The notes beneath the pieces are model-generated. The model worked only from the letters and a program-made list of their open reading frames with translations. It did no database searches and was not told the DNA's origin. A DNA stretch of 64,000 bases, taken from positions 62,001 through 126,000 of the forward strand of contig ML992513.1 of assembly GCA_010093995.1 (NCBI GenBank). The letters are read 5' to 3'. This document shows positions 5,323 to 54,570 of the stretch, one piece after another. The translations under genes were made by a program, and so were the position numbers. Each line of letters opens with the position of its first letter. The stretch's first letter is position 1. The stretch comes from Elsinoe ampelina (taxonomy: Eukaryota).

Positions 5323-5581
5323 TGTCAACCGAGGCATAAGCTGGAGCGCCAAGAAGACCCTGATTCAGTTCATCCCAAGGTTAAACTGAACACTTATCCA
5401 CTACTCTACTAATTCATGATCAAATTAAATGGTTAGTGTCTTAATCTGTTGTTACTTAGGAGTTCTATTAATTTATCTATCTCTTAGTTTATTAGGTTAA
5501 GTATTTATATAGTTATAATCTACCTTAGTTTAGTAGATTAGGTAGTAATTAATTCTTTTTCCTCCCCTATATAAGTTAATA
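5323..5581 (+). repeat. Copia 5' LTR
   Basis: Colinear with 41175-41433; the differences seen are C/T and G/A transitions. Confidence 0.95.
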
Positions 5582-6512: not shown

Positions 6513-6743
6513 TATTAGAGGTAGATTATATCAATACTAGTGAGTATATATAATAATTAACTTGTAGTAGTATAAGGATAGCTCTCGATTAGTAGTACGA
6601 ATAATACTTAAGGAAACTATCTTCCTCTACTAGTACGTAGCAAGATTAGAGCCTATACGTATAGGCTATCTAAAGCTAGCTAGACTCTAGATCCTTACAC
6701 CTAATTAGAAGCTTATACCTTATCCCTAAAAATCCCTATAATA
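6513..6743 (-). repeat. Gypsy 3' LTR
   Basis: Direct repeat of 13271-13501. Confidence 0.95.
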
Positions 6744-13270: not shown

Positions 13271-13501
13271 TGTTAGGGGTAGATTATATTAATACTAGTA
13301 AGTATATATAATAATTAACTTATAGTAGTATAAGGATAGCTCTCGATTAGTAGTGTAAATAATACTTAAGGAAACTATCTTCCTCCGCTAGTACGTAGTA
13401 AGATTAGAGCCTACACGTATAAGCTATCTAAAGCTAGCTAGACTCTAGATTCTTACACCTAATTAGAAGCTTATACCTTATCTCTAAAAATCCCTATAAT
13501 A
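13271..13501 (-). repeat. Gypsy 5' LTR
   Basis: TGTTAGGGG...ATAATA, direct repeat of 6513-6743. Confidence 0.95.
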
Positions 13502-13506
13502 GGAGC

Positions 13507-15631
13507 CTAAATATATATACTAAGGCTAGTATAAGTAGATTAAGTACTATTACTTAAATAAGTATCTAAGGCTAGAAGGATAGACACTAAACTAGTAGAC
13601 TATAAAGGAGATTAAATAAAGGCTAAATAATAAGACTCTTAAAGAGAGAATTAAGACTTCTATTACTAAGGAAGTATAATATTAAAAGGAGTTAACTCTA
13701 CTAGTGTTAATTAATATAGCTATTACTATTAGATTATACTTAGTATTTATCTTAGCTACTAGTAATATCTCTAACTTATAGATACTAGATTCTAGAGTAA
13801 CTAATTATATCTATAATTACACTATAAAGGATAGATATAAGGTTACTAGAATTATAGAACCTTATAAGAAACTATTCTATAGTAATACTTTACTTAGTAT
13901 TAAGAGTTAGAGAACTATTAATATTATAGCTCTTTACAAAGGAAAGTCTATAACTATCTATCTTATAAAGGTAGCCTATATACTATTAATTATAACTAAT
14001 CTAGTTAGCCTTAGGAGGTTTATTAATAGTAGAGTCTACTAGAACACTTAAACTATAGAGATTAGCTATAAAGGAAAAGTGCTCTTCTTAGTTATACTAA
14101 AGCATAACTAATATATTCTTAAGGATAACTCTAAAGCTCCTAATATTACTACTATAGTATTAAGGGATAATAATAATTATCTACTATTAGTATTTACTAT
14201 AGTTACTATAAGGACTAATTAATCTTAGTATAAAGTTATAGGCTATCTAAGCCTAAAGTCTATTAATTACCTTCTAACTACTATAGTTAGTAGTAAACTA
14301 ACTCTAACTAAGCCTAGTTTAGCTTAACTAATTTATCTTAGGTCTCTATATTAGACTTATAAGCTATTAAATGCTTAGTAGATTATATTAAGGAGCTCTA
14401 ATACTAAACTTACTATATTAAAGCTATTTAAGAGAACTACCTTTAATATTATTATTAATAGATTTACTAGCTATAATAAGGTAAGATATATAAGCTACTT
14501 TACTTATAGGACTACTAACTATTAACTAGTTACTACCTATACTTATAGATATAAGATTAATAAAATCTATATTAAGATAATTACTTATATTAAAAGCAAT
14601 TTTAGCTTTAAAATTAGATTCCTTAGGAGTAATAATAAGAGGGCCTTTAGCCTTAAATTTACTATCTTTCTAGATAGTAAAGAAATCTATTATAAGCTAT
14701 CTACTCCTTATACTTAAGCTTAGAATAGTTATAATAAAAGGATAAAAGCTATACTATTAAGGAGAGTAAGGGCAATTACTATCTTTACTAATCTACTAAG
14801 GGAATTACACTCTAAACTATATAGATTAGTAGCCTATCTAATTAATAGAATACCTCTTAAGAAGCTAAACTAGAAGACTCCTTTTAAGCTAGTTTATAGA
14901 TACTCTCTATTAGTTACTTATCTTAGGCTACTTAGATATAAAGCTTATACTTTAGATAAGCTTATTATAAGTAGTAATAAGCTTATACTAAGGGCTTATA
15001 TTAGCTATCTAGTTAGCTATAACTTAACTAACATCTTTAGGATCTTTATACTAGCCTCTAAGAAGGTTATTAGAACAAGAGATGTTAGATTTAATAAAAC
15101 TTAGTTCTATAAGCTAGAGGAACAACCTTAGCTAAAACTAATTAGATTACTTAATCTACTAAGGCTCCTATAGAAGGTTAATAAATCTAAAGGGGTATAT
15201 AAAGTAGAGGGAACAACTAAACTAAATCTAGTTTAGCATCTAGTTTAGTATCTAGTTTAGTATCTAGTTTAGTATCTAGTTTAGTATCTAGTTTAGTATC
15301 TAGTTTAGAATCTAGTTTAGAATCTAGTTTAGTAACCGAACTAGATACTATCTTAGACTCTAAGTTAGAGTAAGCTAGATTAAGGGCTAAGCCTATCTTA
15401 GTAGCTAGATAAGGGTCACCCTATTACACTAGATTAGTTACTACCTCTATTAGACTAATTAGATAAGGCTATTCTAGATCTAAACCTAGCTTAGATCTAG
15501 GAATCTTTACTAAATAAACAGTTCTTTAATACTCTAGCCTTACTACTATCTATAGTAGTATAGCTATCTCCTCTACTACTAGGAGGAGATAAAGCTAAAG
15601 GAGATAAGATAGAAGTTTAGACTAAAGGGGT
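13507..15631 (+). pseudogene. Copia gag knuckle, protease and integrase (RIP-mutated)
   Basis: De-RIP motifs: WILDSGATDHICN ~13779; WHKVMGHL ~14226; RFLRSDN ~14615; STPYTQAQNG ~14700; GYLVGYDSTNIFRIF...VIRTRDVRFDE ~15003-15100. Confidence 0.9.
15228..15332 (+). repeat. Coding minisatellite, 9 x 12 bp (CTAGTTTAG(T/C/A)AT), de-RIP peptide PVQH/PVQN, in the Copia IN-RT linker
   Basis: Directly visible tandem array that preserves the reading frame. Confidence 0.9.
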
Positions 15632-15660
15632 ACGTCACGAAAGTCCTAAGCGTAGGGAGT
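15632..15660 (+). repeat. Left terminal inverted repeat of the giant element
   Basis: Inverted match to 39364-39392. Confidence 0.8.
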
Positions 15661-15714
15661 TAGAATATTAGGTTTCTCCGTATTAAACTAAGTTTAACTA
15701 CGTTAAGTCGCTAC

Positions 15715-15829: not shown

Positions 15830-16600
15830 GATGTAGAAATCAACGAGTATCTTCCGGAGAGGGCCCTCTAAGCTAGTGTTATTATAGATCTTGTCCGCTA
15901 GATAGAGGGGAAGTATATACTCTATATTATCGAAGCTCGGTATAGAAGCGCTTTCGCTATAATAGGAAAGTAGACATTGTACGCCTTGTTCTCTAGCTTA
16001 CGACATAAAACCCTAAACTAATATATACTTATTCTAACTCTATTTTATTATCTCTACTTAGTTGTCTATTAAGGTGTTAGATGTCTCTAAAGATAAGCAC
16101 TTTCGCGTAACTATATAGCTAGCGATAAAGGTTAACACTAACGAAAAGCGCCTCTATTGCCCTATAGCCTATAAGTTCTACTATCTAGCGGCCTATATTG
16201 TCGATAATATAAAACAAGCTTATAGAGGGGTATTTATAACTTAGGCTCGTAGATGCAAGGAAGCTTTTCCTAAGAAGGACTTAATTATTATAGCTAAGTA
16301 TAGTTATAATATTAAGTATAAATACCTATAGACCTATTCTAGTACTTAGAAGTCGTTAGTAATATAGGAAGAGAATAACAATAGAAGCTAGATACACTAC
16401 ATTAATAGTGGCTATAGTAGCGAGGCTATAGCCTATTCTAAGAAGATCGACACTAACACGGACAGGTGCGGGAAATGTAATAGACATTTAGTTTAGGCTA
16501 AGCTAATTCCTCGTCTACTAACACGGAATAGTATACCTACTAGAAGGATAATTCTAGAGCTACGAAAGACTACCTAGAAAAGTAAGGTCCGATAGACATT
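15830..16600 (+). pseudogene. SprT-like (GCNA/Spartan family) zinc metalloprotease, RIP-mutated
   Basis: De-RIP in one frame: TIQLAIKVDTDEKRL..IAHEFCHLAAHIVD..KQAHGGVFMTWARRC..AKHGYDIKYKYLWTC...HSKKIDTNTDRCGKCNGHLVQAKPIPR. HEXXH at 16170-16184; CGKC survives unmutated at 16467-16478. Boundaries approximate. Confidence 0.8.
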
Positions 16601-18019: not shown

Positions 18020-21000
18020 TTAATGCCTACTACGCTTACTAACTACGCCTAGGGATCTTAACCTCTCTCGTTTTAAAGCCTTAGCTAGGTAGAGCTATTT
18101 AGACTCCTATAACTTATTCTATAGCATGTTATATGTGTCGAAGTTAGCTATATTATTAATATATATCCGGCCGTATAGCTTCGTTTTATCTACTAGCACG
18201 ACGTAGATACTATAGTAGATTTATAAGGTAGAGTAGATACGCCTACTAGTAAGAGCGTTCCGTCTAGCTCGCGCGCGTCGATTTGTCTAAGGCTTAATTA
18301 GTATTATGCTATACTCTCGATTAGCTACTCTATCTAGCCGAGTAGGCTAATATAGATCTACTAGCGCTCCTATATAGTATAGGCATTAACGCCGGCTTAA
18401 TCTACTAGACTAGAAGCTATCCTCTATAGTTATTATAAATATAATACGAGCTAGTAACTTACCTTATAGGCTATTAGGTAATGCTCTATTAGTGCCTTTG
18501 TTATTCGTTGTCTATTCTTGTACCTAGAGCTAGTCTTGCCTCTTATTACTACGTATTCTCTACTATTTAGTTATATACTAGATAAAGTCTTATTTGTCCG
18601 TATTAGGATTATTAGGATTATAGTCGAATAGTTTCCTACACTTTAAAGAATAGTAGAACTTAACGCGAAGGTTACTTACCCGGGAAGAATCTAGTTTAAG
18701 TCTGTTAGGATCTAGTTCGGCATTAAACTAATTAGGGTATTTAGTTCTCGAGTTAGAGCCTATATCGGCTATACCTTAACAAGCCTTACGGACAAACACC
18801 GCTATTACTTACTATAGCAATAGCCTAGGTAGTATGTTAATAAGCGCCTCTAGTTCTCTTACTATACGCTATATAGCTCTCCCCTTAGCGCTAGGCTAGC
18901 TAAACTAAGAAGTAACGTTTACTACATCGCTTACGCCGACTAGCGTACTTTAGATCTTAATTAGTTTAGTAGCTAATAGCCTAACTAACTTCGAGGGGTT
19001 ATCGAATACTACTAATATGTTTACTAGTTTAGTGTTATAAGTAGTAACCTAGTCTTCCTATCTAGCCTTCTTATTTGTAAGTTTAAAGGCGTCCTTAATA
19101 AAGCATACATAATTGTGCTTTAAATAATTAGAATTAAGGCTAGTAACTACTTTAAAATTATAGATAGCCTTCGAAAAATGTATTATTAAGTGCTATTTTA
19201 GAAAGTTAAAGTTGCTCTCTTCTTTCCTGTTGCTATAATAGGCCCGGAAGGTTTCTTTATACTTGTTTATCCTAAAGAGCGTAAGGTTAATATACCGGAG
19301 TATATCGTCGTTATAGGTCTTATAGTTTACTAGTAATATAAAGTCGACTAGTACGCGTATAAACTTAATAGCTTAAGGCGCCTTAACCTCCTCGAGTAGC
19401 GGTATAAATACTAGAAGTATCTAGCGTATAATACTCTTCTACTCTTAACCTGTCTATTACTTAATAGCTAAGTAGTATAAGAAGTGTCGAATGCTAGGAA
19501 ACACTAGTATACTATCGAAACGCTTATTAATAATATTAAGTATAATCTTCTTTACTAAGCGCTAGTAGCCTATTCGCTATATAGTCTCTTTAGCCTTTAT
19601 ATACCGTAGTAATCTCTATATAGGTATTAAATCCTAGAGCAATTTTTAAGTCTAGCGTAAGACGTGTATTAAAACGCCTTTAAGAAGTTAGTATAGAATA
19701 TCTAGCACTATCGCGTAGTAAATATTAGTATACGAAAGATCCTATATAAAGTAACTAACTATATAAACCTAAGAGCTTATATCTATCTTCTCGCCTCGCT
19801 ACTAACTCTCGCGTGCTTTTCTCTATAAGCGCTATTATCGCTACGTAGAGTAGTAAGTTTAGAACGGCATAGTAACTACTAGATTCTCCCTTTTGTCCTT
19901 ACTAATTAGGCAACTTATACAATGATATAGTAACTTTATACCGGTTATAGTAACCTATTCGGTGTAATTTATAGACATAGTAGTAAGTATAGAGAAGTAC
20001 CTCTATCTCTTTCTATTTGTATAGGAGATTATTTCGCCCTCTCTCGAGTAGTAATTAATAACAGCGTTAAAGATTTTCTTTATACAAGCGTAGTAGGTCT
20101 TCTCCTTGACGATATTACTACTATCTTTAATAATAGAAAGTAAGCCGATTAGTAACTACCTCGGCCGGTAGTTGCTATTATATACTTCTACCTTTAGGTT
20201 GCCTAATAATAGATAGATAGTATATACTATAAGATCTCCTTAATAGTTTATTACCTAGGTCTAATTACTTACGACAATTAATGGAATAATAGTAGCCCCT
20301 AGTATCCTAAGTCGCTTTTGTGTGTTCTACTACTAGTCGCTACTTGCTATTTTAGTGTACACTCGTCGTAGTAGCTTACCCTCGATAGCTTCTATAAAGA
20401 CTCTATATAGGCTATAGTCTATATCTGCTATAAAACCGCGATAGCTAAGCAAGAAGTGTATCGCTATAAGAATATCTAGATGCCGGAACGTGTGTCTTTT
20501 AGGCCTACGATTAGTGTTTAGTATAAAGCTCGAGGTCTACTAGCCGTTAATACCCTCGCCTGTATCTAAATTCTCTATCTTCTCTATTAGTTCATTCGTA
20601 GTTCGCTAACTAAGGCTCTCTACTAGAGGTTATATACGTAGGTCTTTAAGCAATTACGTAATTATAGCTCTACTAAGTTTCTCCTTTATAAGCTACTAGG
20701 CAAGACCTACGTCTATACTACTAATAAAGGCTTCCTTTAGTTAAGTCTCGCCTAACTAATTATAATTTAGTTCATCGTCGGTGTTAGTATATATATTATA
20801 GACTTAGGGAGATCTAGATAAGATTAGTTAACGCGAACTAAGGATAAACTATATCTATAACTAACTCTTTGCTGCTAGCTAGTATACTAGTAGCTATCTT
20901 AAACATAGTATAATTAGATGTAGCTCTACTAAATAAGGACAACCTCCTAGTACTCCGCTCTATAGATATGCTACTAGTTATGCTTACTGTAATTACTTAC

Positions 21001-21557
21001 TCTTTCTCGTGTATATCTTCTATTATAACCTTGTCTATGCTCTCCTCTTCCTTGTGTACGTTACTATCGAGCCTACTATTACTATTACTGTCTATTCTAC
21101 GTGCTAGAGGTCGAGGATTAAGGTCGGTAAAGAGACTAAGAGGATTGTCCGCTATACTATGCTATATAGTAGGCAAAGGGGGAAGGACACTCTCTGCCGG
21201 CTATAGACTTTCGTTTTTACTCTAGTATTTAGTTTAATTCTTAGTTACTGTTATTCGCGGCGGAGTAAAGTAAACTAGCAAGTTATTTAGCATTAGCGGA
21301 CTATGTTATATATTACTAGTAATACTACCTCGTTAGCCTTTATTAGATAGTAAGCGCTCTCCCTTATTAAACAAGCGGAGATTGTTATTAGTATTGTCTC
21401 TACGTAGATGTCTATTACTACGTTACTCTAGTAAGACTTGCGCTATGTTACTTATTAGTAGCTCTCTTCTCTAGTAATATAGTAGATGTTAGATAAGGCC
21501 TCTACTAGATTATATAATCTTCCTATAGGCCGAGTATTTACTAATTTGCCTTAGTAT
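18020..21557 (-). pseudogene. Plavaka-family (CMC-related) transposase with N-terminal C2H2 finger and acidic linker, RIP-mutated
   Basis: De-RIP: RRVYTEMASGDWWWNTQKRL..GATIIPLIVASDQTQV...AIYLSLGNL...RPGWLLIGLLPI (~20140-20370); ADYTEQV..TGIKSHYHCTSC (~19915-19980); PDILHQLLKGVF (~19675-19705); C-terminal HVVP...YVNN..DFDTYNML (~18120-18215); N-terminal CSACGK...LIQHL (~21480-21540). Confidence 0.85.
20791..21257. repeat. Internal direct repeat 1, copy A (acidic N-terminal region of the transposase)
   Basis: Aligns without obvious gaps to 28143-28609 (offset 7352). Confidence 0.9.
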
Positions 21558-21639
21558 ATCTGTGTTTGTCGCTTAAGATCTAAATTCGTAGTTAGAGTTA
21601 GCTAGCTAAATTTTAGCAATAGTAGGAAGTAAGAAACGT

Positions 21640-24620
21640 TTAGATACTATATTATATTAGGTAACCTAAAAGATAGTTTAACATGTATAGGGAACTAAAT
21701 TAGTCTACTAAACTAAAGAATTACATTTTTAGGTGATATAGTTAGACTATTATCTAGTAATCTTAATTATTATCTATAACAATTGTGTTCTTCTTCGCTA
21801 TAGCTTATTAAAGTTTCTAGATCTTTGCCCTCTACTTCTCTATTTCCTCGTAGATAACCTTCTATATTATTAATAGCCTACTCTATCTACTATTAAGCTA
21901 TTCTAGAGGCCTATAGAATAGAGCTGTCGGCTTTATTATAAACGCCTCTATATAGTTAGCTTTCTAAGACTTAATATTTCTATAGACCCGAGCTAGATAC
22001 TAAAGGATAGATTATAACACTAACGCTATGTTAAGTAAGATTATAGTGTCGAAGCGGTTTAGATTAAGACTAGTCTTAATAGCTCTACTCTAGGCAATTA
22101 AGATCCTTAAGCCTTCCGGCCTATTAGGTTCGATAAACGTATTATTAGACATAGCTACGTCGACGATATCTATATAGGCAGGTATAGATGTTATTCTATA
22201 GTAGACAACAACTACATTAGCATTCTTATTAATCCTAATTGCTTTGCTGTCTAGGTGCTTCTTAAGCTATTTTAGATACTATGCCCTTGTTAGTAATAAC
22301 CTAAATAGACTAAATAGACCGAACTAACCGTTGTAGCGACTACTAGCACTAACAGTATAAACGTATAGACAATTACTTGCCTCTTTAGCTCCTTCGAATA
22401 GGAGACGTTCTACTTAATAATCTTAGAAATAACACTATAAAGGACCTTTATCTAAGGACTAGCGTAGATCTTATCTATGTGCTACTATAGCGCTATCTCC
22501 GAGGGGTTATATATAATTTTATAGACAAACTTAATAGTAAAGTCGCTAAACTCTTCTACGACTACGGGATTGTCCTAGAATATATCTATAAGAGCGAGAA
22601 ATATAGAGAAAAGTAGTAGTAGCGTAACTAGGCTTAGTATTTACTCCTTAGTCTTCTTATTAAGGATTGTCTCTAATATTACTTTAGGCTTGTTAGATTT
22701 GTCCTTTTACCTATTAATTGCCTCTTATATACTCTTATCTATATTCCGTTTAATCTTCTTCTATATATTTATAAGACTATAAAGATACTTATTCTCGATA
22801 GTAATCTCTAGGTTAAAGGTAGAATATAGTAGAACTCTAATAGCTAGTAGACTAGGAGTAGTATCGAAAGGTTTCTAGATGTAGTCTACGTTTATCTTAA
22901 TAAGAATGTTCGTAAGAATAGTGCCCTATTTGCCGACTATTACTATAATCTCTTTTATAAACTATATACTTCTCTTTTTGTTAAACTTACTAGAGTCGTT
23001 GTTCGCCTTATACTATTTATTAATTACAAAGGCATAGTCTAATACTATTTAGAAGTTAAGCTTGTTAGCGATAGCTTATTAAGTCTTATCTAGTGTTATC
23101 TTTAGTGTTACTTAACATTTGTTGTCCTTAGCCTTAGTTAGCTCCTACTTAGATTTATAGATATAGTTCTTGTTAAATTCTCCTATTCTACTTCTATTTG
23201 CATTAAGCTTTTCTAATCTAAAGTCCTTATATATAGCCGCTATTAAGAACGCTACTATATTTAAGCACTTAACAAATAGCGTCCCGCTTATACCTAGTAT
23301 AAAAGGCCTCCCCGGTAGTATTCCTAGATAACACTAGGTCTACGTCTTCTAGCTAGTAACCTAATAGAACTTATTAAAGATAACAGCGGCCTAGTTTATA
23401 GGCGTAGACCTCGGCTTTCTCTCTTGTCCCTTAGGAACAAAGTTCTAATCCTTAGTATTTATATTATTCTTACTAAGGAAGTAGTAGATTATAGTGTTAT
23501 AAGTGGTAAAGAAGAACTAATTATTTATCTATAAGGTCCGGGGGTGTCGCTTATGTATATTAACTAGTTATAAGACTATAATAGTGTCGATAGGCTCGCT
23601 AGACTTATCTATCGGCTAAGACTTCTATTAGCGGTAGTCTATAGGTAGATTCTCTTTGCAAATTAAAGTGTCTATGTTATATACGTCGCTATACTTATAT
23701 TCTCGTATAGCTTAGAATATCCTTCCCTAGTATAGAACGACCTTTATATTAGGTATAAACTTCCGTGTCTCCTACACTTACTATTTTATTACGTTTAATC
23801 CGCTAATAATTAGATTATAGTTAATAGTATCCGTAGAAGCGATATCTAGCTATAGCTCGTTAACTAGTGTCTTTACCTTCTAGTACTTGCTCTACTTGTC
23901 CTTAGGTATAGTAGTATAGTTAGTATCCTAGATAACCTTTTTATTTAAGTTCTAAATTAGTAAGAGGAAGAAGAGTCCTATCGGAGTCTTTCTAAATTCT
24001 ATCTTATATATAAACACAAATGCTAGATAGCCTTCGAGGTATTTCTTAAGTATAACAAGTGCTAAGTATATCTATACTACCTTAACTAGATACTTCTTGT
24101 TCTAACTAAAACACTATATACTAGCGTTTAGTAAGTAGATGTCTTTCTTAAAGCCTATAAAGTTATAGACTCTCTCCTAGAACTCTTCGGACTAGTAATT
24201 AATTCTAGTGCCTATAGAGATAAAGCTTTAGTTAGCTAGATTATTACTAGTTTACTTGTCGTCGTTGTTGTTTATAGTATAAAGTTTAACAAAGTTCGAG
24301 CTACTAAGAGTCTTATTAAATATACAAGTTACAAGCGCTAGGATAGGTATAGATAGTATCTTAGAGACTAACGGAATATAGTACCTTACTTACTCCTTAC
24401 TAGGTATAATTATAAAGGGATACTAATTGCTATCTCGGCATTGCTTGTAGTATTTGTCTTCTATTACCCGAGTAGGACGATAGTTAATAGTAGTATTATT
24501 CTCGTTAGGTAGTAGAGAGCTAGGTTGCTTCTTAGGGGTAGATTTATATAGTAGTAGGCGCTTAGCCGGAGATAGAGAGGCTAGAGGTTCCTCTTCCTCT
24601 TCCTCCTAGACTAGAGTCGA
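21640..24620 (-). pseudogene. SF2 helicase/ATPase, SNF2-like, RIP-mutated
   Basis: De-RIP: Walker A EMGFGKT ~23985-24008; motif Ia NLII...VIEQWVQE ~23765-23820; W.AVIFDEFH ~23364-23395; ILGMSGTP ~23277-23300; C-lobe ILI...AIETGLNL...IILLD...YLARVHR ~21980-22105. Boundaries approximate. Confidence 0.75.
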
Positions 24621-24849
24621 TAGCTTCTAACTATTATAATACTAAAGAGGGTTAACTAAGTATGTTAGTATATACCTAAGTCGAACTAAGTATTAAACTT
24701 ATAAAGTACTTCTTCGGGAAGCTTCTTAACTAGATCTATACTAGGCGTAAGATAGACGAAGATTATATTACTACCTTTAACTAGGGAGTTAATATAGTTA
24801 ATTATAGTAGTACGTAGGTCGTAGTTGTCTAAGATAGGTAGGATGTTAT

Positions 24850-25744
24850 ATAGCTCTATATAATCTATCTATATAAGAATAATGTTATTACTAACTAACT
24901 TCTTCTTCTTTAGAAATAGCTTAATATTATTAAGGCTATATACGTTCGAATTATAATCCCCTAGATGTGACCTTAAAATTCTTAGACTAAACGCCTATAG
25001 ACAACGTAAATATTCTCTCTTTATAATTATGCCTAGGCTAATGTCTAATTACTTAACAATTATAAAGTTAATAATAGTTTTGTTAATAATACTCTAGACT
25101 AGACGAGATATGTCCTCTAGTATTTGCTACTAACGTATAGGCTAACTAGTGTAGTAATTAATATCTATACCTATAAGTCCGCTACCGAGTATAGAAGTCT
25201 CTAATCTTTTAGAGAGTCTACTATTAGACTAGGTAGCGGAGGGGCGCTTTCTAATATACTTCTTAGGATAAGCCTTCTTGTCTACTTTAGTCTAATTCTT
25301 CTTATTCCTAAGCTCTTACGCCTTAATAGTAAGGACAAAATCTTTAATAACATTATAACTAGATATATCGTTATAGTTTCTAACGTTCCTCTTAAACTAG
25401 TCTTAGTCTTAATAGTGTAGTCTTTAAAAGAAGATCTTTGTATAGTTATCCTAAGAGTATTATAGGGAAGTTTTAATGTTGTCTATAATCGTAGTTATAT
25501 TAATGTTACTATCCTAAGGTTTCTTATATTTAAGTCTTAGAACTGTATAGGTATTCTTATATTCTTTCTACGCTCTTACGCGTGTAGCGGCGTACTAGTT
25601 GTCGTTCTAGTTAAAGAATTTAAGGAAGAATCTCTTAATCTTAAGGTTTTTATCGAGCTATACTTAAATTTCTATAGGAGGTCTTTTGTAAAGCGAAATG
25701 TTATTAGTAGCTATACTAGCGCTATTAGGCTAATTCTTAGACAT
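24850..25744 (-). pseudogene. Unknown cargo gene, paralog of the N-terminal part of the gene at ~30850-33020
   Basis: Surviving ATG at 25744. Shared blocks with 32630-32880: GTTCCTCTTAAACTAGTCT vs GTTCTCCTTAAACTAGTCT, and FFNQNDNWY vs FFFNQDNW.Y. Confidence 0.45.
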
Positions 25745-26675
25745 ATTACGTACGTCTATAAGCTTAGTATATGCTATAAATAAAGCTTAGAATAATATCT
25801 AGTAAATAGGTTAAGTAGGTGTAGTAGATATTAAAGAAGAGATTCTATAAAGGTGTTATGTATTTATAAGTTTAGAAGAATTAAGGAGAGGATTTGTTAA
25901 TATAGTAGGTCTATACACTTTGTAATATATGCCTAACTAAGACTTAACTAAAGAGGAGATATTTAAGTAAAGAGCGCTTAAAAGAGAGATTAAAGAGGTT
26001 AAAGAAATACTAGAGAGCTATATAAGTTATTTGTTTATATATAAGAGAGTATAAACAAAGGTAAACTAAAGCAATTAAGGAGAGAAGTGACCTAAATTTA
26101 GTCGACTTAGGTTAGGCCCTGAACTAAGCACGTAGTAGTATACTAGATACAGTATATATATAATAGTAGATCACTTAGTTTAGACACTAAACTAAGAGTA
26201 ACTATAGTCCGTATACTTAGTTACCTTTTATTTTACATGCCGTATATACTAAGGATACTATTGTCGTATTTAGGGTAGATCTTAAGGGATAATAGTCTAA
26301 TAAATAAAGGGAATATAGTAGTAGTTAACGTGAAATAATTAAACAATTTTTTAACAGCGAAACTAGTATTCGTATATAAAGGACAATAGTAATAGAACAC
26401 AAATAGAAGGTAGTTAGTAGCCTATAGCAGAATAAAGAGCATAGTATATATAGCGTATAGTATAGCTTATAGATGCTAGTAAAGGAACAAAGAAAGTAAT
26501 ATACTACTATCTAATTATCTAGACTTTATAATTGCTACATGTAGAATCGAGTAGTAGAGTAGAGTAAAGGCTATATATTCTGTAGAATAGGCAGTTAATA
26601 GTACATTCTACATAATTATAAATGCGCTTTATTCCTCGCCTAGCTCTACTAGAAAGGCAATAGCGAGAGAGGACG

Positions 26676-27442
26676 CTACTAGTATAGCTCCGCCTATAAC
26701 GCTCTCTATAGTAAGCTACTATCTAGTAGAAGGTAGTAGATATATCTTTGCCCGCGATATTTCTCTATCTCTTCCTCTTTGTTATACTAGTTATTCCTCT
26801 ATAATTCTCCTCTTAATATCCTTATACTATAAGGCAGATAATCCCTAGTAGACGCTAGCTCCTCTACCCTCTTTACGTACGCTAGAACCTCTAGTAGCAC
26901 TATCTATAAGATCGGGAGATGCTCCGCGATAGATTTGCTTAGTCGTAGCTACTAGGTAGAGATAGTAGCTAGTTCTACTAATAATACGTAGCTAGTGTAA
27001 AGGAAGCTATAGAGAGCAATAGTAGCGGAGAGAGAGAAAGAGATATTAGAGTCTCCTTATACACTCTTAAGCCTATAGCGGCGTAGTAGGCAAGATAGAG
27101 AGGTATACTATAATAGATTTACTCCGGCGTAACTACTAGGTACTAGTAGTAGTTAATCCTATAAACACGATATAGCTAGTATAGAGAATACTATTAGAAG
27201 TAGTAGCGATAGCGATATAGGAGTAAATATTAGAGTTACTATTATGTATATAGCAATAGATAATTGTAGTATACTAGGCGAGGGATCCGCTATAATAGAT
27301 AGCTAGCTATTATCGAGGTTAGATAGAGAGGAGAGAAAAGGTTACACTAGGGATGCCGATACCTACGTTTAGGTCGGTATAAGTAGAGAGCGTAAACTAA
27401 GATATTATAGTGAATCGTATCTACGATATAGTTATGTCGCTA
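26676..27442. repeat. Internal direct repeat 2, copy A (~770 bp, probably a small minus-strand gene)
   Basis: Colinear with 33848-34615 (offset ~7172), differing mostly by transitions. Confidence 0.9.
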
Positions 27443-27570
27443 TAAACAGGGTTTACGACGCGTTTATAATGCTATAAAGATTATAAGTCTCTAAACATAT
27501 AATACTTAACTTTAAAGAAGAATATAATTAGATAGCATTACGTAATTAAGTTCCGAGAAGTGCTTAATCT

Positions 27571-27770
27571 AGTTAGGTCGAAATTTTAGGTTATTCTTAA
27601 ACTTCGAGAGAGAGGACTAAGAAATTGTTAGTTCGACGCGATAAACTACTAGCTATCCCCTACCGGCCGTAGTTAGGTCGAAATTTTAGATCATCTTTAA
27701 ACTTCGAGAGAGAGAACTAAGAAATTATTAGTTTAACGTAATAAACTACTAGCTGTCCCCTACTAGCTGC
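27571..27770. repeat. Tandem duplication, 2 x 100 bp, at the junction between the duplicated cassettes
   Basis: AGTTAGGTCGAAATTTTAG...AAACTTCGAGAGAGAG...ATAAACTACTAGCT starts at both 27571 and 27671. Confidence 0.9.
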
Positions 27771-30849: not shown

Positions 30850-33020
30850 GCTACGTGTAAACCTCGCTAGTATATAAGGGTAAAGCCTAATAACTATATT
30901 AGTAGTAACATCTACGCGCTTCTTTATAGCACTATACTATTCTTATTTAATTTAGTTAACTCTAAGTTCGGCATAGAACTAAAACTTGTACTATTGCTTC
31001 TACTATAATAGAGAATAAGATTCTATCCTACTAACTTGTTTCGCTTATTATTAAACGCCCTAGTCTGTTATATCTATAGTAGCATTACTTTATTTCTATT
31101 GTTAATAATATTAAGAACATATTACTTTTTTAATACTAATATTAATCTTGTATTAGTAGAAGTAAGTCGTTATCTTCTTAGACTTACTCTTTTCGCTCTA
31201 ATATATTATAGCGTGCTAGGCAAGCTATAGGAAGTCACTAGTAACAAAGTAGAACTTAGGAGAGGTATTAAAGAGCTCCGAGAGATTATATTTATCTAGA
31301 TAGATAGCCGGCCTTAGGTGTATAGTAGCTTATATAATATTCTTTAAGCTATTAAAGCAGTAGGAACATAGATAGCGCCTCGGTAGTATATACTATAGTC
31401 TAAATAGGCTATGTTCTTCTAGCGGGAGAGAAGGAGCTATATTCTTCTAAAACTATATAAAGTAAAACTACACCCTAAACTAAGTCGCTAGGTTAGTTAA
31501 AATCTGTCTAGCTATAGTTATAGAACTATCGAGTAAGTTTGCTTCTAATAACAATAACGGAAATTGTAGGATTTATAGAGGCTATAGCCTCTTAGGGGTA
31601 GAACGAGCTAAATAAAACTTTATTAGTTAAGAACTAAATAGTTTTATAAATAATATAATAGCAAATAAAACATAGTAGCATCGCCGCTCTTGCCTTTAGT
31701 AGTTTAGTCGCTATTGCGGGTATTAAACGTTCTATATTATAATATTCTCTTTCTACTAATCTCTTTTACGCTTCTTATTAGTATTAATATCTATAAAGCG
31801 AAGCTTCTTAGGAGTAAGAAACACTTCCGAGTTCTCTTCTATAGTAGTCTTAGCTATAGGAAGTAGTCGCTAGCTACTATAATATTAATAAGAGTTATCT
31901 ATAAGTATTAGTATATATAGATAAATAGAGAAGGGGTAAACTTACTTCGTATAAAGTTAGGAAGATCTTTAACAAATGCTATAAAAGGAGTAAGATAGAG
32001 AAAGATCTTATAGGCACTAGGGATAAGAGTTATAACATGCTTAGTAATAGTAGCATCTAGATCGAAAGAGTCTTTAATAGCGAAGACTTATATAGAGTTA
32101 TATACGTTAAGCTAGTAGAGTTAGAGGTAATTACCTCTAATGTTAAGAATCTACCTAAGCTTACTAATGTAGTAATTAACGTAACGATTCTTGTCCTTGC
32201 TAGTACTAGGCTTTCTTAAGTCGTAAACGTGGATATTCTTTCTTAATATTAGATACGAGATAGTGTCCGCTTCGATGACCTCTATAATCTAGATCGTAGC
32301 GAATTTAATATCGATCTAGACATAATTAGACGCTAGCCCCTAGTTGAAGCTAAACATCCTATAACGAGGCTATATATATAAATCTAATCTTTTATCGCCT
32401 GTCTTTATATAAGTTATATATCTCTCCGAGGATAGTATTCTTACTTAGAAGAGTATTAGTATCTATACAGACGAGGTAGCTAAAGGATATAGACTCTAGG
32501 TGCCTTCTTTACCTAGCAATGTTATTCTTTCCCTTTTAACTAACGGGAGATTTGCTCTTATTAATTGTATAGTATTTCGGAATAATTGCTATATAGCTTT
32601 TATCTTATTAATATTAACTATAGTCTATAAGTTCTCCTTAAACTAGTCTAGATCTTTCTAATCTAGTTAGTTAACGAAGAGCTAGAAATTGTTAGGCGTG
32701 CTATTTAGTAGCCTAGTTTCAATTTTAAGGCGTGCTTTAAGCACCTTAGGATTACGTAACTCGCTTCTGTCTTATTTCTTAATTTTAATATTAGATTCTA
32801 TAAAGACTTTTAAGATTATTTCCTTTATCCTTGTAAACGTAGTAGAGTATTACTAGTTATCCTAATTAAAGAAGAATTAGATAGATTTCTTACTAACATT
32901 ATTATTATAAAGCGCATTCTTAATAAGAGCTAGTATAAGGTCGTTAAGTAGAATCTTTTCTATAGGTTTAGTAGCGACCTTTAGCTTCTTTATCTTCGGT
33001 AGTATAGTACTATTATATGT
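30850..33020 (-). pseudogene. Unknown multi-exon cargo gene, longer paralog of 24850-25744
   Basis: Coding-like minus-strand texture, GTAAG..CTAA..AG intron-like signals (~31140-31190, ~31890-31950), and paralogous blocks at 32630-32880. Confidence 0.4.
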
Positions 33021-33847
33021 ATTTAATAAGTATAAGAATATCTACTAGTAAAGGCGTCGTATAAGGTAGATAAGGTTAGAGGGGTTAAGATTATATAGCT
33101 AGGAACTAAGCGTAGTAAGTTAAGCGCTATAGAGCAAATAGTAGCAATTATAAATACCTACTATCTAGTATAATATTAAAATGCTACGCGGAAAGTAGGT
33201 AGTAACTTCTTAAATATAATAAAATTTGTATTTAAGATAGTATACCGAAGTAAGTAGTATACTTATAACTAAGATCTAGTTTAGGCCTCGACCTAAAAGT
33301 GAACTAGGTTAACTAAGTCTATGTTTTATATATGCTAATAGTAACACGTAATAATTACTAATATTAGGTCGATACTAGAACTAAAAGTAAATAAGTTAGT
33401 TTACTACTAACAAATATTATAGGGCGTAAATTAGGTAAGCAAATAAAACATAGCTATCGGAGGATATTATAAGTGCTAATTATCGCAGAAAATTAGTATT
33501 AAAGTAATTAACTATACTAAACGCTCGTATATTAGTGCTATATATAAAGTTATATATGCTCTAAACAGCTAGCGGACTATTTAATAAAGAGTATTATCGT
33601 ATAAAGCAACAACCTTAATATCTTTATAGTAGACAGGAGACAAGATAAATAACAAGGAATAAAGAAAGATATATAGTATACTTACACGTATTAGACAAGG
33701 AGATTTTATTTACTAGTTAGAGAAGAGAGATTAAAGCGATAGGTATATAATCTACATAGAAAGAAGTACATCGCTAACGTAAGGAAGTTATAATAAAGCG
33801 CTACTAATAACAAAACCCTGCTATAAAAGCAATTATAAAAGAGAATA

Positions 33848-34849: not shown

Positions 34850-37800
34850 CTATATCTACTTCTTATTAACTAGTAATATGCTTAATCGAAGCTATTAAGC
34901 AAGCTCTCGCCCTTAACAATAAAGGCTATAGAGACTTATATAGTCTCTTAGAGGATATTATAATAGGTAAAGGCATAGTTAGAAGAATATTTAGGTCGAT
35001 TTCTAATAGGAGAAGGTTAGAGAAGGAGGTACTTCTAGTAGTACTAGATAGTAATAATATTCGGTGTACGTTTCGGCGTACAATAGAGCTCTTAGAGAGT
35101 AGCGACAGTTAAGCTGCCTTTCGTGCTCTTATCTATAAGATAAGTACCAATTTTAGACATTAGCAGGTATAGTTATACTTAAGATTACATAAGCCTAGAG
35201 GAGCGTAGAATAGTGCTAATACGCTTACCTCGAATAAATCCTCGAATTGCTAATTGTAATTATAAGCGCCTTTACTCTCTAATCGACTAGACGACATACT
35301 ATTAGTAGTTTATAAGGATAGAGAGATATGTCCTATCTACTTAATTAGAGATCTTCTACTTACACGTTATAAAGCTATAACTACTATGTCTAAGGAGAAT
35401 ATAGATATTAAGTTTAATTAGCTAAGGGTAATATCAATTATAACGGACTACTATATATATAATAAGCAAAGTAATGTTATAGGTTAGAAGGACAATAAAA
35501 CGCTATATTTCGCTATAATAGAGAATACTATCTAGTTTAAGGCTGTTATCTTATCTAAGATATTACATAGTTTACCTCTTTATATTCTAATAAGGCGACG
35601 AGATTAAAGAAAGTATCTAGCCGAAGCAAGTATAAAGGAGAATAGTCCGGTAGTAGACTAAGTCGAACTAAAAAGTAGTAGGGCAATCTACGCTAAGCTA
35701 TACCTACTACTAAACCCTAGAGTTTTAGTTCGTTTACTACGCTTTATTCTTCCTTACCTTTTAACTAAATCGCCCTTTAGAATTACTTATCTATCCTCTT
35801 ACTATTAATCTATTAGGTCTATTAGTATCTTTCGGCTAGGCTCCTAAGTATAGATATCGATCGTACTAACCTTATTTCTCTAGCGGCTAATATCTAGACT
35901 ATAGGATTAAGTATATAGGCTTCTCTTATCTATTTAGGTGTTAAAGCATAGTCTTCTAATAGTCTCCCTAACTAGCTAGAGGCTTAAATTAGAAGCTCTC
36001 TACTATATATATACGGAGAAAAGTATAATTACATTAGTAGCTAGTAAAAGCGATATAGGACCTAGTAGCCTAAATAGCTTAATAGATAGTAACTCCTAGA
36101 GGAAGACATTACACTTGTTTAGTAGGAAGTAGGCCGATTGTAATTAATAGCGGAGAAGAACGTAAGCTTAATTAGATAACTCTAGCGAGAGAACAATATA
36201 CTTAGGAAGTATATTAGTAAAGCTTTTTACGCGTTTAGCGTCGCCTCTACGGACCTTACTAGTAGAGTGTTAAGGGACTTATTCGAATTAAACAAAAGTA
36301 TACGACACTATACTAATAGTACTACTCTACTATTACTATATATAGTTACTAATAGCTAATTAACACCTGCCCTCTATTACAACATAATTAGTAGAAGATA
36401 AGCTACTCTATCTAGCGTATCTTATTTAGATACCCTAGATAGCGAGATAGTAAGTAATTAATGCTTTTAGCACTTAGAAGATATACTACTTAGCAAAGAG
36501 GGGACTACTAACGTAATTAATAAGGAAGCTACTACATAAATCGTACTACCTATCTATATATATAATAGCTAGTTCCTATAGTCTTTCGAATTAGTATATA
36601 ATTACTCGGTCTAAGTTTAATCTGTAATTTCTCTCTACGTATTTCTACTCTAATTGTTGCTTAACCTAATAATAAATGCTATATTTAGTTTAAGCATTTA
36701 GTCTAAGTAAGTTCGAGTAGCTTTCTTTTTTAGTTTAGCTTCTAGCGATTAACACTCCGCGAGTTAGACCTAGCTATAAGTCCAATTTAATACCCTTACT
36801 AGTTAAGATTACCTTAGGGTATAGGCAAATATAACTAATTCTAATTAGAAGAAAGTCGCGCACTTTAAATACCTAACTAAGCTATTATCTAACTTAAACT
36901 AACGCTAAATTACTATAACGTATATAAGATAACTATCTATCCCTCTTATAGTATATATTATTCCGGCTTACCTTGCTAACTCTCTTATACCTATATACCT
37001 CTTTATTAGAACTATTATAAACTAAAATGTCTTAGGCACGTTAGCGCCTATATAGCTCGGACTATAAGACCGATAAGTATTTTAAAGATAATAATTTAGG
37101 TTATTTTAACTAGGATAAAGCAGAGTAAGGCTTTAGCATTAAGGGAGACTAAGCTAACTACGTAGGCTATAAATACAACATCGAAGACAAAGGAGAAGGC
37201 ATAAATTAGATATTACTACTCTCGATCCGAGTTTAAGAGAGCTATAACCTAACGAGAATAGCCTAACGTTAGTCTCTACGCCGGTTAAGATAGTAAAGTA
37301 GAGGTAATAGAACGTACTAAACTAGTATCTCGACATTTTCGAGGTAGTATATAACGATCTACGTACAAGTATAGCCGTCGGAGTAGATTATAATACAATA
37401 TTACTAACATTAGATAATTAATAGCTACTCCTACGAATTACACGGTACTAGCGCTTAGTCCGTAACTAGCTACTAGTACTTTATCTATAGAGGACTATAG
37501 GTAAATACTCTTCCGTAGTTATAGCTAGTAAGGTAAGTTACGTAGCTAAAGCTAATTACTTATTAATATACATATAGCTCCGAGAGGCGCTCCGCTATAG
37601 TTATAATAACATTACACGAATAGTAAGTAAGATACTCTACTACGAATAGCTAGCTAAGGGGCTAGAGGATAGCGAGCTACCGAATTAGGCACGTAGGCTA
37701 CTAGAGGAAAGAAAGTACTAATACAAGGACAGCAATTTAGTACGCGCTAGATATACTTATTAATTAATTGCTTATATATAGTAGCGTAAACACTTTAGGA

Positions 37801-39100: not shown

Positions 39101-39363
39101 GAATGTTTCTATAATTAATATTATTAAGCTTATAGAGTAGACACGAACTAATTACTTTACGAACTAAGAAACGCTTAAACTGAGATAAGAGATACACGTA
39201 GTGCGCTATCTACTATTAGGCCGTCTCTGTTTGCTACGTATTAGAGGTTTTTAGATTTCTACAGGGAAAAACTATATTACTTCTAAGTAGGACCTAGGGG
39301 TAACTAGGGGATTGCATTAAACTAAGTTAAACTAAGTTAGTTGCTTAGAAGTAGTCTAACGTA

Positions 39364-39392
39364 GCTCTCTAGCGTTAGGGATTTTGTAACGT
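39364..39392 (-). repeat. Right terminal inverted repeat of the giant element
   Basis: CTCTCTAGCGTTAGGGATTTTGTAACGT, inverted match to 15632-15660. Confidence 0.8.
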
Positions 39393-39395
39393 AGT

Positions 39396-41150
39396 TAAAG
39401 CTTAGCCTAAGTAACTCTCTTTAAAAATTGCTATAAGGTTAGCTAACCTTCTTCCTAAATATATTCTTATAATAAGAAGAATAAGAAAACTAAGAAGGTA
39501 AGTATATATTACTACNNNNNNNNNNNNNNNNNNNNNNNNNNNNNNNNNNNNNNNNNNNNNNNNNNNNNNNNNNNNNNNNNNNNNNNNNNNNNNNNNNNNN
39601 NNNNNNNNNNNNNNNNNNNNNNNNNNNNNNNNNNNNNNNNNNNNNNNNNNNNNNNNNNNNNNNNNNNNNNNNNNNNNNNNNNNNNNNNNNNNNNNNNNNN
39701 NNNNNNNNNNTATAAAGTTAATAACAAAGGAGAGGTTATAAAGTATAAAGTAAAAGTCTATATAAGAGATAATCTCTAATTAATAGAATCTAAGACTTAT
39801 ATAGCAACTCTAGTAGCTAAGATCTTTAGAATGCTTATAGCATTACTTACTTATAAAGATATAAAGGCTATCTAGATAGATGTTATTAATGCCTATATTA
39901 ATAGTCCTATTAATAAGACTACTTACTATACTATCTCTACTAGATTTAAGCTAGTTATAGAGGATCTTATAAAGGACTATCCTAGTATTACTCTATTAGA
40001 TATAATTCTGCTACTTAATAAGGCACTATATAGTCTAAAGTAAGCCCTAGCTCTCTAGTATACTAAATTTACTACTACTCTAAAGAGTATTAGATTTACT
40101 TAAGCCCCTAAGGCTCTATATCTCTAAATAATACCTAAAGTAATAATCTTCTTCTTTGTAGATAATATTACTATTATATATCTTAAGAAGTATAAGGAGA
40201 AAGCTAATACTATTATTATAGCTCTCTATACTAAATATAAAATAAAGATACTTAAAGATCTAAGCTAGTTTCTAGCTATCTAAGTTATAAGAGATAGACT
40301 AATAAAGAGACTCTAGCTTAGCTAAGCCTAGTATATACAATAGATATATAGCAAGTTTATTATAGAACTAATAAGGCTAGTATTAATACTACTACTAATT
40401 AAGATACTCTAACCTTATAAAGGCTAAGTATTACTATAAGAGATCTACCTATATTAGTAAAAGATAGAATCTATTAACTTTATAGTAGTTATTATAAGGC
40501 CTAATATAGCCTTTGCTACTTCTAGATTATTAGAGCATCTAATAAACCTATTACTAACTTACTAGAGGATAGTAAATAGAGTAATCTAATATCTCTATAA
40601 AACTAAGAATTTAGCTCTTACCTTTAATAGCTTAATACTACTACTAATCTTTTAAGCTTTATTAGATACTAGCTTTAGTAGCTACCTAATAAGGAAGAGC
40701 CTTTAAAGCTATCTCTTTAAGATGTTTTAAGAATTAATTAACTAGAAGGCTATAAAGTAACTAATAGTTATAACATTAACTATAGAGGCTAAATTACTTA
40801 CTCTTATAGAGACTACTAAGTAAGCTATATAGTAGAGAAGACTAATAGCCTCTATCTATCTCCTTAAGTATATTAGTATTTAGTGTAATAATTAGTAAAT
40901 AATTAGCCTTATTACTAGTCTAATTAAGAAGCTTAATATATATCTTTATTATATTAATATCTATTATTACTAGCTAAAACAAGAGATTAATCTAGCTAGA
41001 GATCTATCTAGCTCTATCTTAGTAATATAGACACTATTAGTAGACACCTTAGCTAATAGATTTACTAAATTATTGCTACCTAGGAGGTATAAGGCCTTCT
41101 TATAATAGCTATCCCTTAAGTTAGTAGTCTACTAACTAGCTATTATAGAG
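39396..41150 (+). pseudogene. Copia reverse transcriptase and RNase H (RIP-mutated)
   Basis: De-RIP: KYKARVCVRGDLQ ~39740; QIDVINAYINS ~39873; KALYGLKQAPALWY ~40020; FFFVDDI ~40148; RPDIAFA ~40497; TVTTSTTEAEL ~40765; HIDIHYHWL ~40950. Confidence 0.9.
39516..39710. other. Assembly gap (195 N) within Copia pol
   Basis: Run of N with Copia pol sequence on both sides. Confidence 1.
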
Positions 41151-41174: not shown

Positions 41175-41433
41175 TGTTAACTAAGGCATAAGCTAGAGCG
41201 CTAAGAAGACTCTAATTTAGTTTATCCTAAGGTTAAACTAAATACTTATCTACTACTCTACTAATTTATAATTAAATTAAATAGTTAGTGTCTTAATCTG
41301 TTATTACTTAGGAGTTCTATTGATTTATCTATCTCTTAGTTTATTAGGTTAAGTATTTATGTAGTTATAATCTACCTCAGTTTAGTGGATCAGGCAGTAA
41401 TCAATCCTTTTTCCTCCCCCACACAAGTCAACA
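41175..41433 (+). repeat. Copia 3' LTR
   Basis: Ends ...AAGTCAACA and is followed by TSD CCCGC. Confidence 0.95.
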
Positions 41434-52497: not shown

Positions 52498-52981
52498 CGA
52501 AGTGCCATCCTTGAAATCGCCGAAGGATGTCGCAGTGGCGAAACGATACTGTTGAGTGTTTCACGGCGTCGTGACTGAATTCTCGCCGTCCTCGCTGTCA
52601 GTAATCGTCAACAACCACGATGAATGCTTTGTACCAATGGTACATCGCGGCGCAGCCGTATCATGGAGACAGCATTGGGGATCACAAACAGGAAAAAGGC
52701 AAGAGTGCTGGCGACGTGCCAGATTGTGATTGGTTGATCTCCCAGCTGAAGGAGGGGCATCCTGAGGCCCACCACGAAATCGCACTCATCGCTTCTGCTC
52801 GGCACCTTCTAAGGATTCGAGCCCTTGGAATTGTACCGAGCAATGGGGAGGAGGTCATTGACCTGTCTCTGAACAGAGACGTCACAGAGATTGCTGTGAA
52901 GGTAGGCCCCGGAACTGGGTCGCAGCACTCGCCAGCCAGCCGCTTGTCGCCTGAGTTGACTACTCAAGGCATCATCTTATC

Positions 52982-54449: not shown

Positions 54450-54570
54450 TGCACACGAGCGAGCCCTGTGATACTTCTAGACCGGACGGATAGGACTTCC
54501 TGGTCGTGTGTGGTGAGGATTTGGAAGATTTCGAGACCTCGCGCTTCGAAAGTGGACTTTGCACGACAGC

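Follow-up and report, generated by a model that had tools for sequence, protein, structure and literature searches.

According to the passages of Kojima 2025 (PMC12730594) that describe them, PlavakaB transposons have target-site duplications (TSDs) of 2–3 bp and termini of the type CATCA..TGATG; the same source reports TET/JBP cargo of Plavaka elements in mushrooms. Red-algal giant Plavakas of 17.4–19.1 kb, presented in the main text of bioRxiv 10.1101/2025.02.11.637652, carry the accessory genes PAG1, a methylase-SET protein and a ParB-2OG protein, and a chromatin or anti-silencing role was proposed. The fungal DNA transposons with helicases that are named in passages of PMC10799480 are AcademH, KolobokH, and Helitron. 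A 26-kb repeat of Stagonospora nodorum, X3X3R8, which was altered by repeat-induced point mutation (RIP), contains, according to part of PMC3017866, an internal duplication in tandem as well as helicases that are Rad5/SNF2-like. Here, we analysed a 64,000-nucleotide stretch of the Elsinoe ampelina genome (contig ML992513.1 of assembly GCA_010093995.1, positions 62,001–126,000), referred to as the window, which is a segment of a 28.3-Mb genome of 161 contigs. The window contains a 23.8-kb PlavakaB-type cut-and-paste transposon, inside which lies a SNF2-family ATPase gene that was destroyed by RIP. Comparison of gene neighbourhoods indicates that a SNF2-like gene with the motif DEFH, together with an accessory gene named gene X, accompanies Plavaka transposases in divergent lineages. 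The SNF2 identity of the gene and its status as cargo are close to certain.

The RIP-inactivated transposon comprises 23,759 bp (15,633–39,391, minus strand), delimited by the shared ends of about 20 genomic copies, a colinear copy of a second subfamily, and RIP indices. Similarity among the copies ends abruptly at positions 15,633 and 39,391. The terminal inverted repeat (TIR) at the transposase-side end (15,633–15,667, plus strand) begins with CGTCACGAAA. The TIR at the far end (39,357–39,391, minus strand) is imperfect and RIP-mutated, and CGTCACGAAA opens both ends of the element in partly RIPed form. The TIRs are flanked by a 2-bp TSD with the sequence TA (15,631–15,632 and 39,392–39,393). 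The transposon sits inside a Ty1/copia element, and in uninterrupted genomic copies of that element the two flanks directly adjoin each other at the position of the TSD. Matching 2-bp flanks were present in all 12 elements in which both ends were examined (TA in eight, CT in two, TC and AC in one each); an additional stretch included just one end. Starships are defined by a tyrosine-recombinase captain at the 5′ end; the mobility of the element in the window is accounted for by its TIRs, 2-bp TSD, and DDE transposase.

The Plavaka transposase is a pseudogene on the minus strand (18,300–21,557), with a first exon from 21,557 to about 20,820 and a main exon from about 20,797 to 18,300, the 3′ end being approximate. 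Its domain matches PF18759 with an E-value of 5.9e-27 and a score of 95 bits, compared with the cut-off of 26.3. The first exon has a zinc-finger-like Cys-x2-Cys start, and the CxxC motif and an ILxxLLKGVLxH block align with intact homologs. The start codon at 21,557 is preserved in three of 24 copies. The catalytic acidic residues have been altered by RIP in the window and are hence inferred. Among named homologs, the nearest come from Polychaeton, Meristemomyces, and Aureobasidium, and the Polychaeton protein is 33% identical to that of the window. A coding-like frame at approximately 16,000–16,600 (plus strand), which converges on the transposase, contains a CxxC motif and has a weak zinc-ribbon match only.

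The element shares with PlavakaB the type of transposase and a TSD within the 2 or 3 bp of PlavakaB/CMCT, and its ends come close to CATCA..TGATG. Among 20 end stretches, the termini are mostly CGTCA or its RIPed form CGTTA, one base off the published CATCA, whereas CATCA and CATTA occur at one end each. In its TSD and termini, the element fits the PlavakaB type except for the second TIR base, which is usually G. The transposase tree was built only from metagenome and NCBI homologs, and the branch of the window transposase in it is long (2.05). It also differs in size, 23.8 kb compared with the 9.9 kb of one published consensus, in its cargo of a SNF2-like gene and gene X in place of the TET/JBP genes of the published passages, and in its origin from an ascomycete-type RIP genome.

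The RIP signature extends over an AT-rich block at approximately 5,300–41,450 of the window. The TpA/ApT ratio is 1.9 in this block and 0.55 in the host DNA, and the (CpA+TpG)/(ApC+GpT) ratio is 0.27 compared with 1.34. Aligning the helicase region of 20 copies gives 1,514 variable columns, and 1,479 of these differ by C/T or A/G. The genome contains 37 matches to this region: 21 full-length ones at 91% or above, including the window, four at 80–81%, two partial, and ten short matches, which are to a second helicase paralog. The 25 full-length copies thus form two subfamilies (21 and 4 members), and a subfamily-2 copy of 23,805 bp is colinear with the window element at 70–82%. Of the 27 main matches, 26 have a Plavaka transposase behind the helicase at a constant offset, and the lone exception is truncated. 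All 28 Plavaka loci found in the genome are rich in stops. The TIR- and TSD-bounded element reached about 26 copies and was then inactivated by RIP; at 23.8 kb per copy, the family is estimated to make up about 0.6 Mb, or about 2%, of the 28-Mb genome. On contig C10 (288,985–336,558), one 23.8-kb copy sits inside the TIR of another, with a CT duplication.

The SNF2-like gene is located on the minus strand. Its main exon (22,329–24,599, the 5′ boundary being approximate) encodes motifs I, Ia, II, and III and the start of lobe 2, and its last exon (21,763–22,278) encodes motifs IV–VI, with a likely stop codon at 21,765–21,763. The exons are separated by a putative 50-nt intron (22,279–22,328; GTTAGT ... 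CTAAC ... AG), which was deduced from the sequence and the frame shift. An earlier note on this DNA had placed a SNF2-like helicase directly upstream of the Plavaka transposase in the same orientation. Both the arrangement and the family assignment hold; however, the gap between the likely stop at 21,763 and the transposase start codon at 21,557 is about 205 bp rather than the roughly 100 bp proposed there.

The exons of the window copy contain 49 and 12 in-frame stops, and the motifs read literally are KIEFRKT, NKFY, SGTL, SLNL, and ARVYR, not the EMGFGKT, DEFH, SGTP, and GLNL quoted earlier. Part of the quoted sequences re-emerges when 24 copies are compared (20 of the 21 full-length members of subfamily 1 and all four of subfamily 2; L052, L053, and L054 are such copies in the host genome). 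In motif I, the glutamate is preserved in one copy and the two glycines in two copies each, and the complete GFGKT can be read in L054. In motif II, the aspartate is present in four copies, the glutamate in two, and the histidine in two, with the literal readings NEFH in L052, DEFY in L053, and DKFH in L054. Motif III retains S-G-T. Three residues occur in none of the 24 copies and are proposed from their codons, which are all compatible with RIP: the methionine of motif I (ATA in all 24), the proline of motif III (CTA in all 24), and the glycine of motif V (AGT in all 24). Motif VI, which had been given as ARVHR, is ARVRR, as 11 of 24 copies have the codon CGT and none has a histidine codon. 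The union of the 24 copies contains motifs I, Ia, II, III, V, and VI in order, and the motifs strengthen in the multi-copy comparison instead of vanishing from it. The helicase frame runs on continuously through all four subfamily-2 copies, and the proteins of the two subfamilies are 66–75% identical.

The RIPed sequences by themselves are poor queries. The window helicase and the other RIPed copies have no match in Pfam, including SNF2-rel_dom and Helicase_C. A hidden Markov model (HMM) of eight host SNF2 proteins gave a non-significant 3.8 bits on the window helicase, compared with a shuffle maximum of 9.5. A custom Viterbi alignment gave a modest 7–12 bits over motifs I–Ia only (null mean about -1 and maximum 2.5–9.0 in 60 shuffles), with no consistent gain from RIP-aware scoring. 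Profiles of RIPed copies matched none of 1.84 billion protein representatives, and none of the 7,997 candidates scored reached E ≤ 10; of two comparisons with the PDB, one gave no match and the other one irrelevant match to a GTPase. AlphaFold models have pLDDT values of 26.6 and 33.3, which are too low for a two-lobe fold to be read. In contrast, a profile of the intact homologs L056, L060, and L061 described below matches the family of the window with E-values of 1.6e-3 for the raw window, 6e-14 for raw L054, and 1.3e-16 for a 20-copy pileup. The hhalign comparison of the RIPed and intact alignments is weak (probability 10.7%, E 0.003) and covers motifs II–III only.

SNF2-like genes also occur beside Plavaka transposases elsewhere. 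Two of the 28 Plavaka loci, L135 and L136, belong to a third family of the same genome. A homologous helicase lies upstream of and co-oriented with the transposase in L136 (33–42% by tblastx), and it matches the profile with an E-value of 1.5e-25 when the family of the window is included and 0.035 when it is not. In L135, an insertion flanked by long terminal repeats (LTRs) breaks the region upstream of the transposase. An alignment of intact transposases identified 152 metagenome relatives, of which the best 80 were analysed and grouped into nine lineages at 60% identity (L055, L056, L058–L063, L065, L067, L068, L071–L073, L083, L094, L105, L114, and L122 denote metagenome Plavaka loci). A SNF2-like neighbour is present in six of the nine lineages. 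L055, L056, L061, and L067 repeat the arrangement of the window, with the gene upstream of the transposase and on its strand. In L060 and in 34 of the 57 L072-cluster loci, it is for the most part upstream and divergent, and in L063, L094, and L105 it is downstream and convergent. Of the three lineages lacking a SNF2-like gene in the available flanks, a superfamily 1 (SF1) AAA_11/12 helicase takes its place in one (L058/L059), the flanks of another are short, and the third has only gene X. The chance rate is about 2% per 20 kb, because the host genome has about 29 PF00176 matches over the cut-off. The corresponding binomial values, 6e-9 for six of nine lineages and 1.6e-4 for three of the six lineages that contributed no profile sequence, overstate independence since the lineages are related. 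The association with Plavaka proposed in the earlier note is thus borne out, although not as a fixed helicase–transposase module: a 23.8-kb element carries the gene among several accessories, and the order and strand of the gene vary. In the L072 cluster, 41 of 56 loci share a sharp end with the terminus CATCG, which marks the cluster as a true element.

Intact homologs from these loci belong to the SNF2 family. L060 matches Pfam over the cut-off with an E-value of 5e-14, and L061 matches Helicase_C at 3e-8 and SNF2-rel_dom at 5e-5, just below the cut-off. The Atlas score of the intact neighbours to SNF2 clusters is 0.97. An intact homolog has 76 PDB matches, and the 60 listed are SNF2-type remodellers or helicase-like proteins, aligned over the C-lobe only. 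L060 contains the canonical GGIVADEMGLGK, with DEMGLGK read literally, and DEFH is present in L056, L060, L061, and L083. The frame of L061 is open for 1,370 codons, and the motifs of L056 and L060 are intact, at about 20% mutual identity. An insertion at motif VI is common to the window, L055, and L061, and one side of the transposase tree holds their transposases.

Compared with the host genome, L061 reaches an E-value of 1.9e-4 at best, over motifs V–VI only, and the N-lobe of L060 has no match there; therefore, the best homologs are transposase-linked genes and not host remodellers, the outcome that the earlier note had named as refuting its reading. A word-indexed search with the intact L061 protein found L061 itself only, and a search of viral contigs identified no relatives. 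The host SNF2 proteins Rad54, INO80, ISWI, CHD1, LSH/DDM1, and Rad5/16 share the seven-motif ATPase core with the element proteins and include the top PDB matches. In contrast, the element proteins have DEFH in place of DEAH/DEGH, long insertions, no accessory Pfam domains, and very long branches. The accessory domains and the close host similarity expected of the canonical remodeller subfamilies (ISWI, CHD, INO80, SWI/SNF) were not found.

Gene X (34,890–35,560, plus strand) encodes a protein of about 270 residues, and an HMM of five intact homologs matches the raw window with an E-value of 1.1e-11. It is present in six of the nine metagenome Plavaka lineages, often directly upstream of the SNF2 gene; the loci are the window, L059, L060 (two copies), L061, L065, and the L072 and L073 clusters. 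Gene X has a low transversion rate between the subfamilies. It has no match in Pfam, and its Atlas scores are below 0.8. We consider its product to be a candidate DNA-binding adaptor. Other genes adjoin Plavaka transposases as well. SF1 helicases of the AAA_11/AAA_12 type, two of them with zinc knuckles, are located in L058 (1471–4353), L059 (5405–8287), L060 (12911–16843), and L062 (5791–9681). L122 (approximately 3,500–1,500, minus strand) and relatives in the L072 cluster have, in the same element, a second SNF2 C-lobe that is RING-bearing and Rad5/16-like, and the mutation pattern of these copies is unlike TpA-type RIP. Neighbours with a weak match to PhyH, a 2-oxoglutarate (2OG) dioxygenase (E 0.015), are found in L068 (2927–5326, minus strand), L071 (2–529), and L114, echoing the 2OG-oxygenase cargo of other Plavakas.

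ATPases of the SNF2 family translocate along double-stranded DNA, from which they displace nucleosomes or other proteins. Because the position and orientation of the gene vary and other Plavakas lack it, it is best seen as an accessory that stands outside the cut-and-paste core. Its explanation as an anti-silencing or accessibility accessory, the best that the sequence comparisons offer, is about as probable as all other explanations taken together. The Plavaka DDE transposase would cut and paste the element at its TIRs, generating the 2-bp TSD, and the SNF2 protein would act as an ATP-driven translocase that strips nucleosomes or silencing proteins off the DNA of the element itself. The promoters and ends of the element could thereby stay accessible, and gene X might recruit the SNF2 protein to the element. 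The clearing of repressive chromatin is favoured because other Plavaka cargo is chromatin-directed; for this specific mechanism, we put the chances slightly below even.

Transversions, which are immune to RIP, were used for a test of constraint between the subfamilies. In the motif-bearing segments, transversions affect 19 of 896 sites at codon positions 1 and 2 compared with 11 of 163 fourfold-degenerate sites (p = 0.003). The single-pair transversion ratio is 0.18 for the transposase and 0.30 for the last helicase exon. However, a number of observations weigh against a conserved anti-silencing accessory. The motif-bearing segments were picked after the alignment had been seen; the other helicase segments change at or above the neutral rate (74/910 compared with 6/116); the test of the whole gene is not significant (93/1806 compared with 17/279, p = 0.47); and the single-pair ratio of the main exon is 0.95. 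The C-lobe tree lacks the resolution to unite the transposon-linked SNF2 proteins in a single clade, and a sharp element end was found only for the L072 cluster, not for L055, L056, L060, L061, or L067. The Pfam matches of L061 are SNF2-rel_dom and Helicase_C only; chromo, SANT, HSA, and bromo domains are absent, and its substrate could therefore be something other than nucleosomes. The element is fully RIPed in this genome despite its cargo. Moderate evidence suggests that the ATPase core is probably constrained, while the insertions change fast.

The outcome of the whole-gene test and the degeneration of the second helicase paralog would also be expected if a host SNF2 gene had been picked up once and hitchhiked without function. 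Such passive capture is hard to reconcile with the 1,370-codon open frame of L061, the intact motifs of L056 and L060 despite their divergence, the frame kept across subfamilies that differ in a quarter to a third of their residues, and the failure of L060 and L061 to find a close donor in the host genome; we regard it as very improbable. Retention of the SNF2 accessory gene by selection is highly probable.

It is possible, if doubtful, that the SNF2 protein acts in transposition itself, as the earlier note had suggested with chromatin remodelling at donor or target sites: by opening target chromatin, by clearing away the transpososome once the strands have been transferred, or in a Rad54-like repair of the donor gap, which would raise the copy number. 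The tight co-oriented linkage in the window, L055, L056, L061, and L136 is consistent with such a role, as is the top PDB match among the 60 of 76 listed, which is Rad54-like, marginally over INO80 and ISWI. The SF1 and RING-bearing Rad5/16-like helicases of the relatives would likewise be repair-flavoured cargo. Three of the nine lineages, however, have no SNF2-like gene in the flanks available, and the order and strand vary in the others, so that transposition does not universally need SNF2. The red-algal Plavakas resemble the element of the window in giant size and in having several accessories, but these are three other genes, and the word “helicase” is absent from the main text of bioRxiv 10.1101/2025.02.11.637652; similarly, “SNF2” is absent from the main text of Kojima 2025 (PMC12730594).

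Both SNF2 and SF1 helicases are found among the Plavaka neighbours, and passages of PMC5555490 describe SAD-6 with a SNF2 helicase domain and SAD-3 with a helicase-like domain. The cargo could thus disrupt homology-sensing defences, such as meiotic silencing and RIP, by competing with SAD-6 and SAD-3, and the fast-changing insertions could mark an arms race. Nevertheless, the resemblance of L061 to its best host match is weak and confined to motifs V–VI, and every one of the 28 Plavaka loci found in this genome is riddled with stops. We consider this explanation improbable.

Anti-silencing or accessibility cargo, the reading that we prefer, would have a possible functional analogue in VANC of the Mutator-like VANDAL elements of plants, which is reportedly a transposon-encoded factor acting on the chromatin of its own element. 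ATP-driven motors are rare among eukaryotic cut-and-paste elements, and the AcademH helicase is assigned to RecQ. The helicases named in the passages of the literature searched are of the DEAD/RecQ type or belong to Helitron. As described there, AcademH and KolobokH resemble the element of the window as fungal DDE-type transposons with a superfamily 2 helicase. However, they have a transposase of another superfamily, and the helicase homologs of the window are SNF2 proteins, not DEAD/RecQ-type ones; the element is a member of neither group, in agreement with the earlier note, which had separated the helicase from that of Academ. No description of SNF2 cargo in Plavaka/CMC elements was found in the literature searched, which was limited to passages and listings, without Repbase and supplements; in the Plavaka papers checked for it, the term “SNF2” is missing or has an unrelated meaning.

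By its description, X3X3R8 resembles the element of the window and may be an unrecognised precedent. The passages of PMC3017866 read it as an endogenous gene cluster, name no transposase or TIR, and report a ubiquitin-conjugating enzyme. A wider scenario, in which ascomycete Plavakas are widespread giants with a co-evolving DEFH-type SNF2 translocase and a gene X adaptor that counter heterochromatin, RIP, or meiotic silencing, might explain X3X3R8, but we put it forward tentatively, as an idea with the odds against it. If the SNF2 cargo is conserved, the counter-defence set of transposons, which includes TET/JBP, SET, and VANC, would be extended by the displacement of nucleosomes or proteins. 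In annotations, additional “SNF2 helicases” of fungi may be transposon cargo, as may some “gene clusters” that were RIPed. The intact homologs L060 and L061 render the SNF2 idea directly testable.

The element also contains a duplication. The segment 28,143–34,615 (minus strand) is an internal duplicate of 20,791–27,442, forming a unit of about 7.2 kb, and contains the degenerate second helicase paralog, which is recognisable only at its N-terminal start (around 31,830) and in the C-lobe (approximately 29,900–29,170). The direct repeats 20,791–21,303/28,143–28,655 and 26,646–27,442/33,818–34,615 were considered as LTRs; this reading was rejected since the repeats cross and represent the ends of the internal duplication, which other copies have as well. 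Two 94-bp direct repeats are located at the duplication junction (27,570–27,763). A coding-like frame identified by a codon model upstream of the helicase (24,670–25,759, minus strand), with a paralog at approximately 31,860–33,100, is either a separate gene or an N-terminal exon; it does not match the N-termini of intact SNF2 homologs.

The Ty1/copia element that hosts the insertion has an LTR pair at 5,323–5,579 and 41,175–41,431, and its reverse transcriptase (39,720–41,100, plus strand; RVT_2, E 9e-9) lies outside the transposon. This outer element (5,323–41,431) seems to contain a nested LTR element as well (repeats 6,515–6,743 and 13,273–13,501), and a 12-bp tandem array is located inside it at 15,190–15,380. 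A run of 195 N at approximately 39,516–39,711 lies just beyond the end of the transposon. Elsewhere in the window, a GH5 cellulase gene is located at 3,459–4,502, and host NLR-like genes occupy 48,013–57,282 (minus strand), encoding a PNP_UDP_1-NACHT protein, a second NACHT protein, and a DUF7580 protein.

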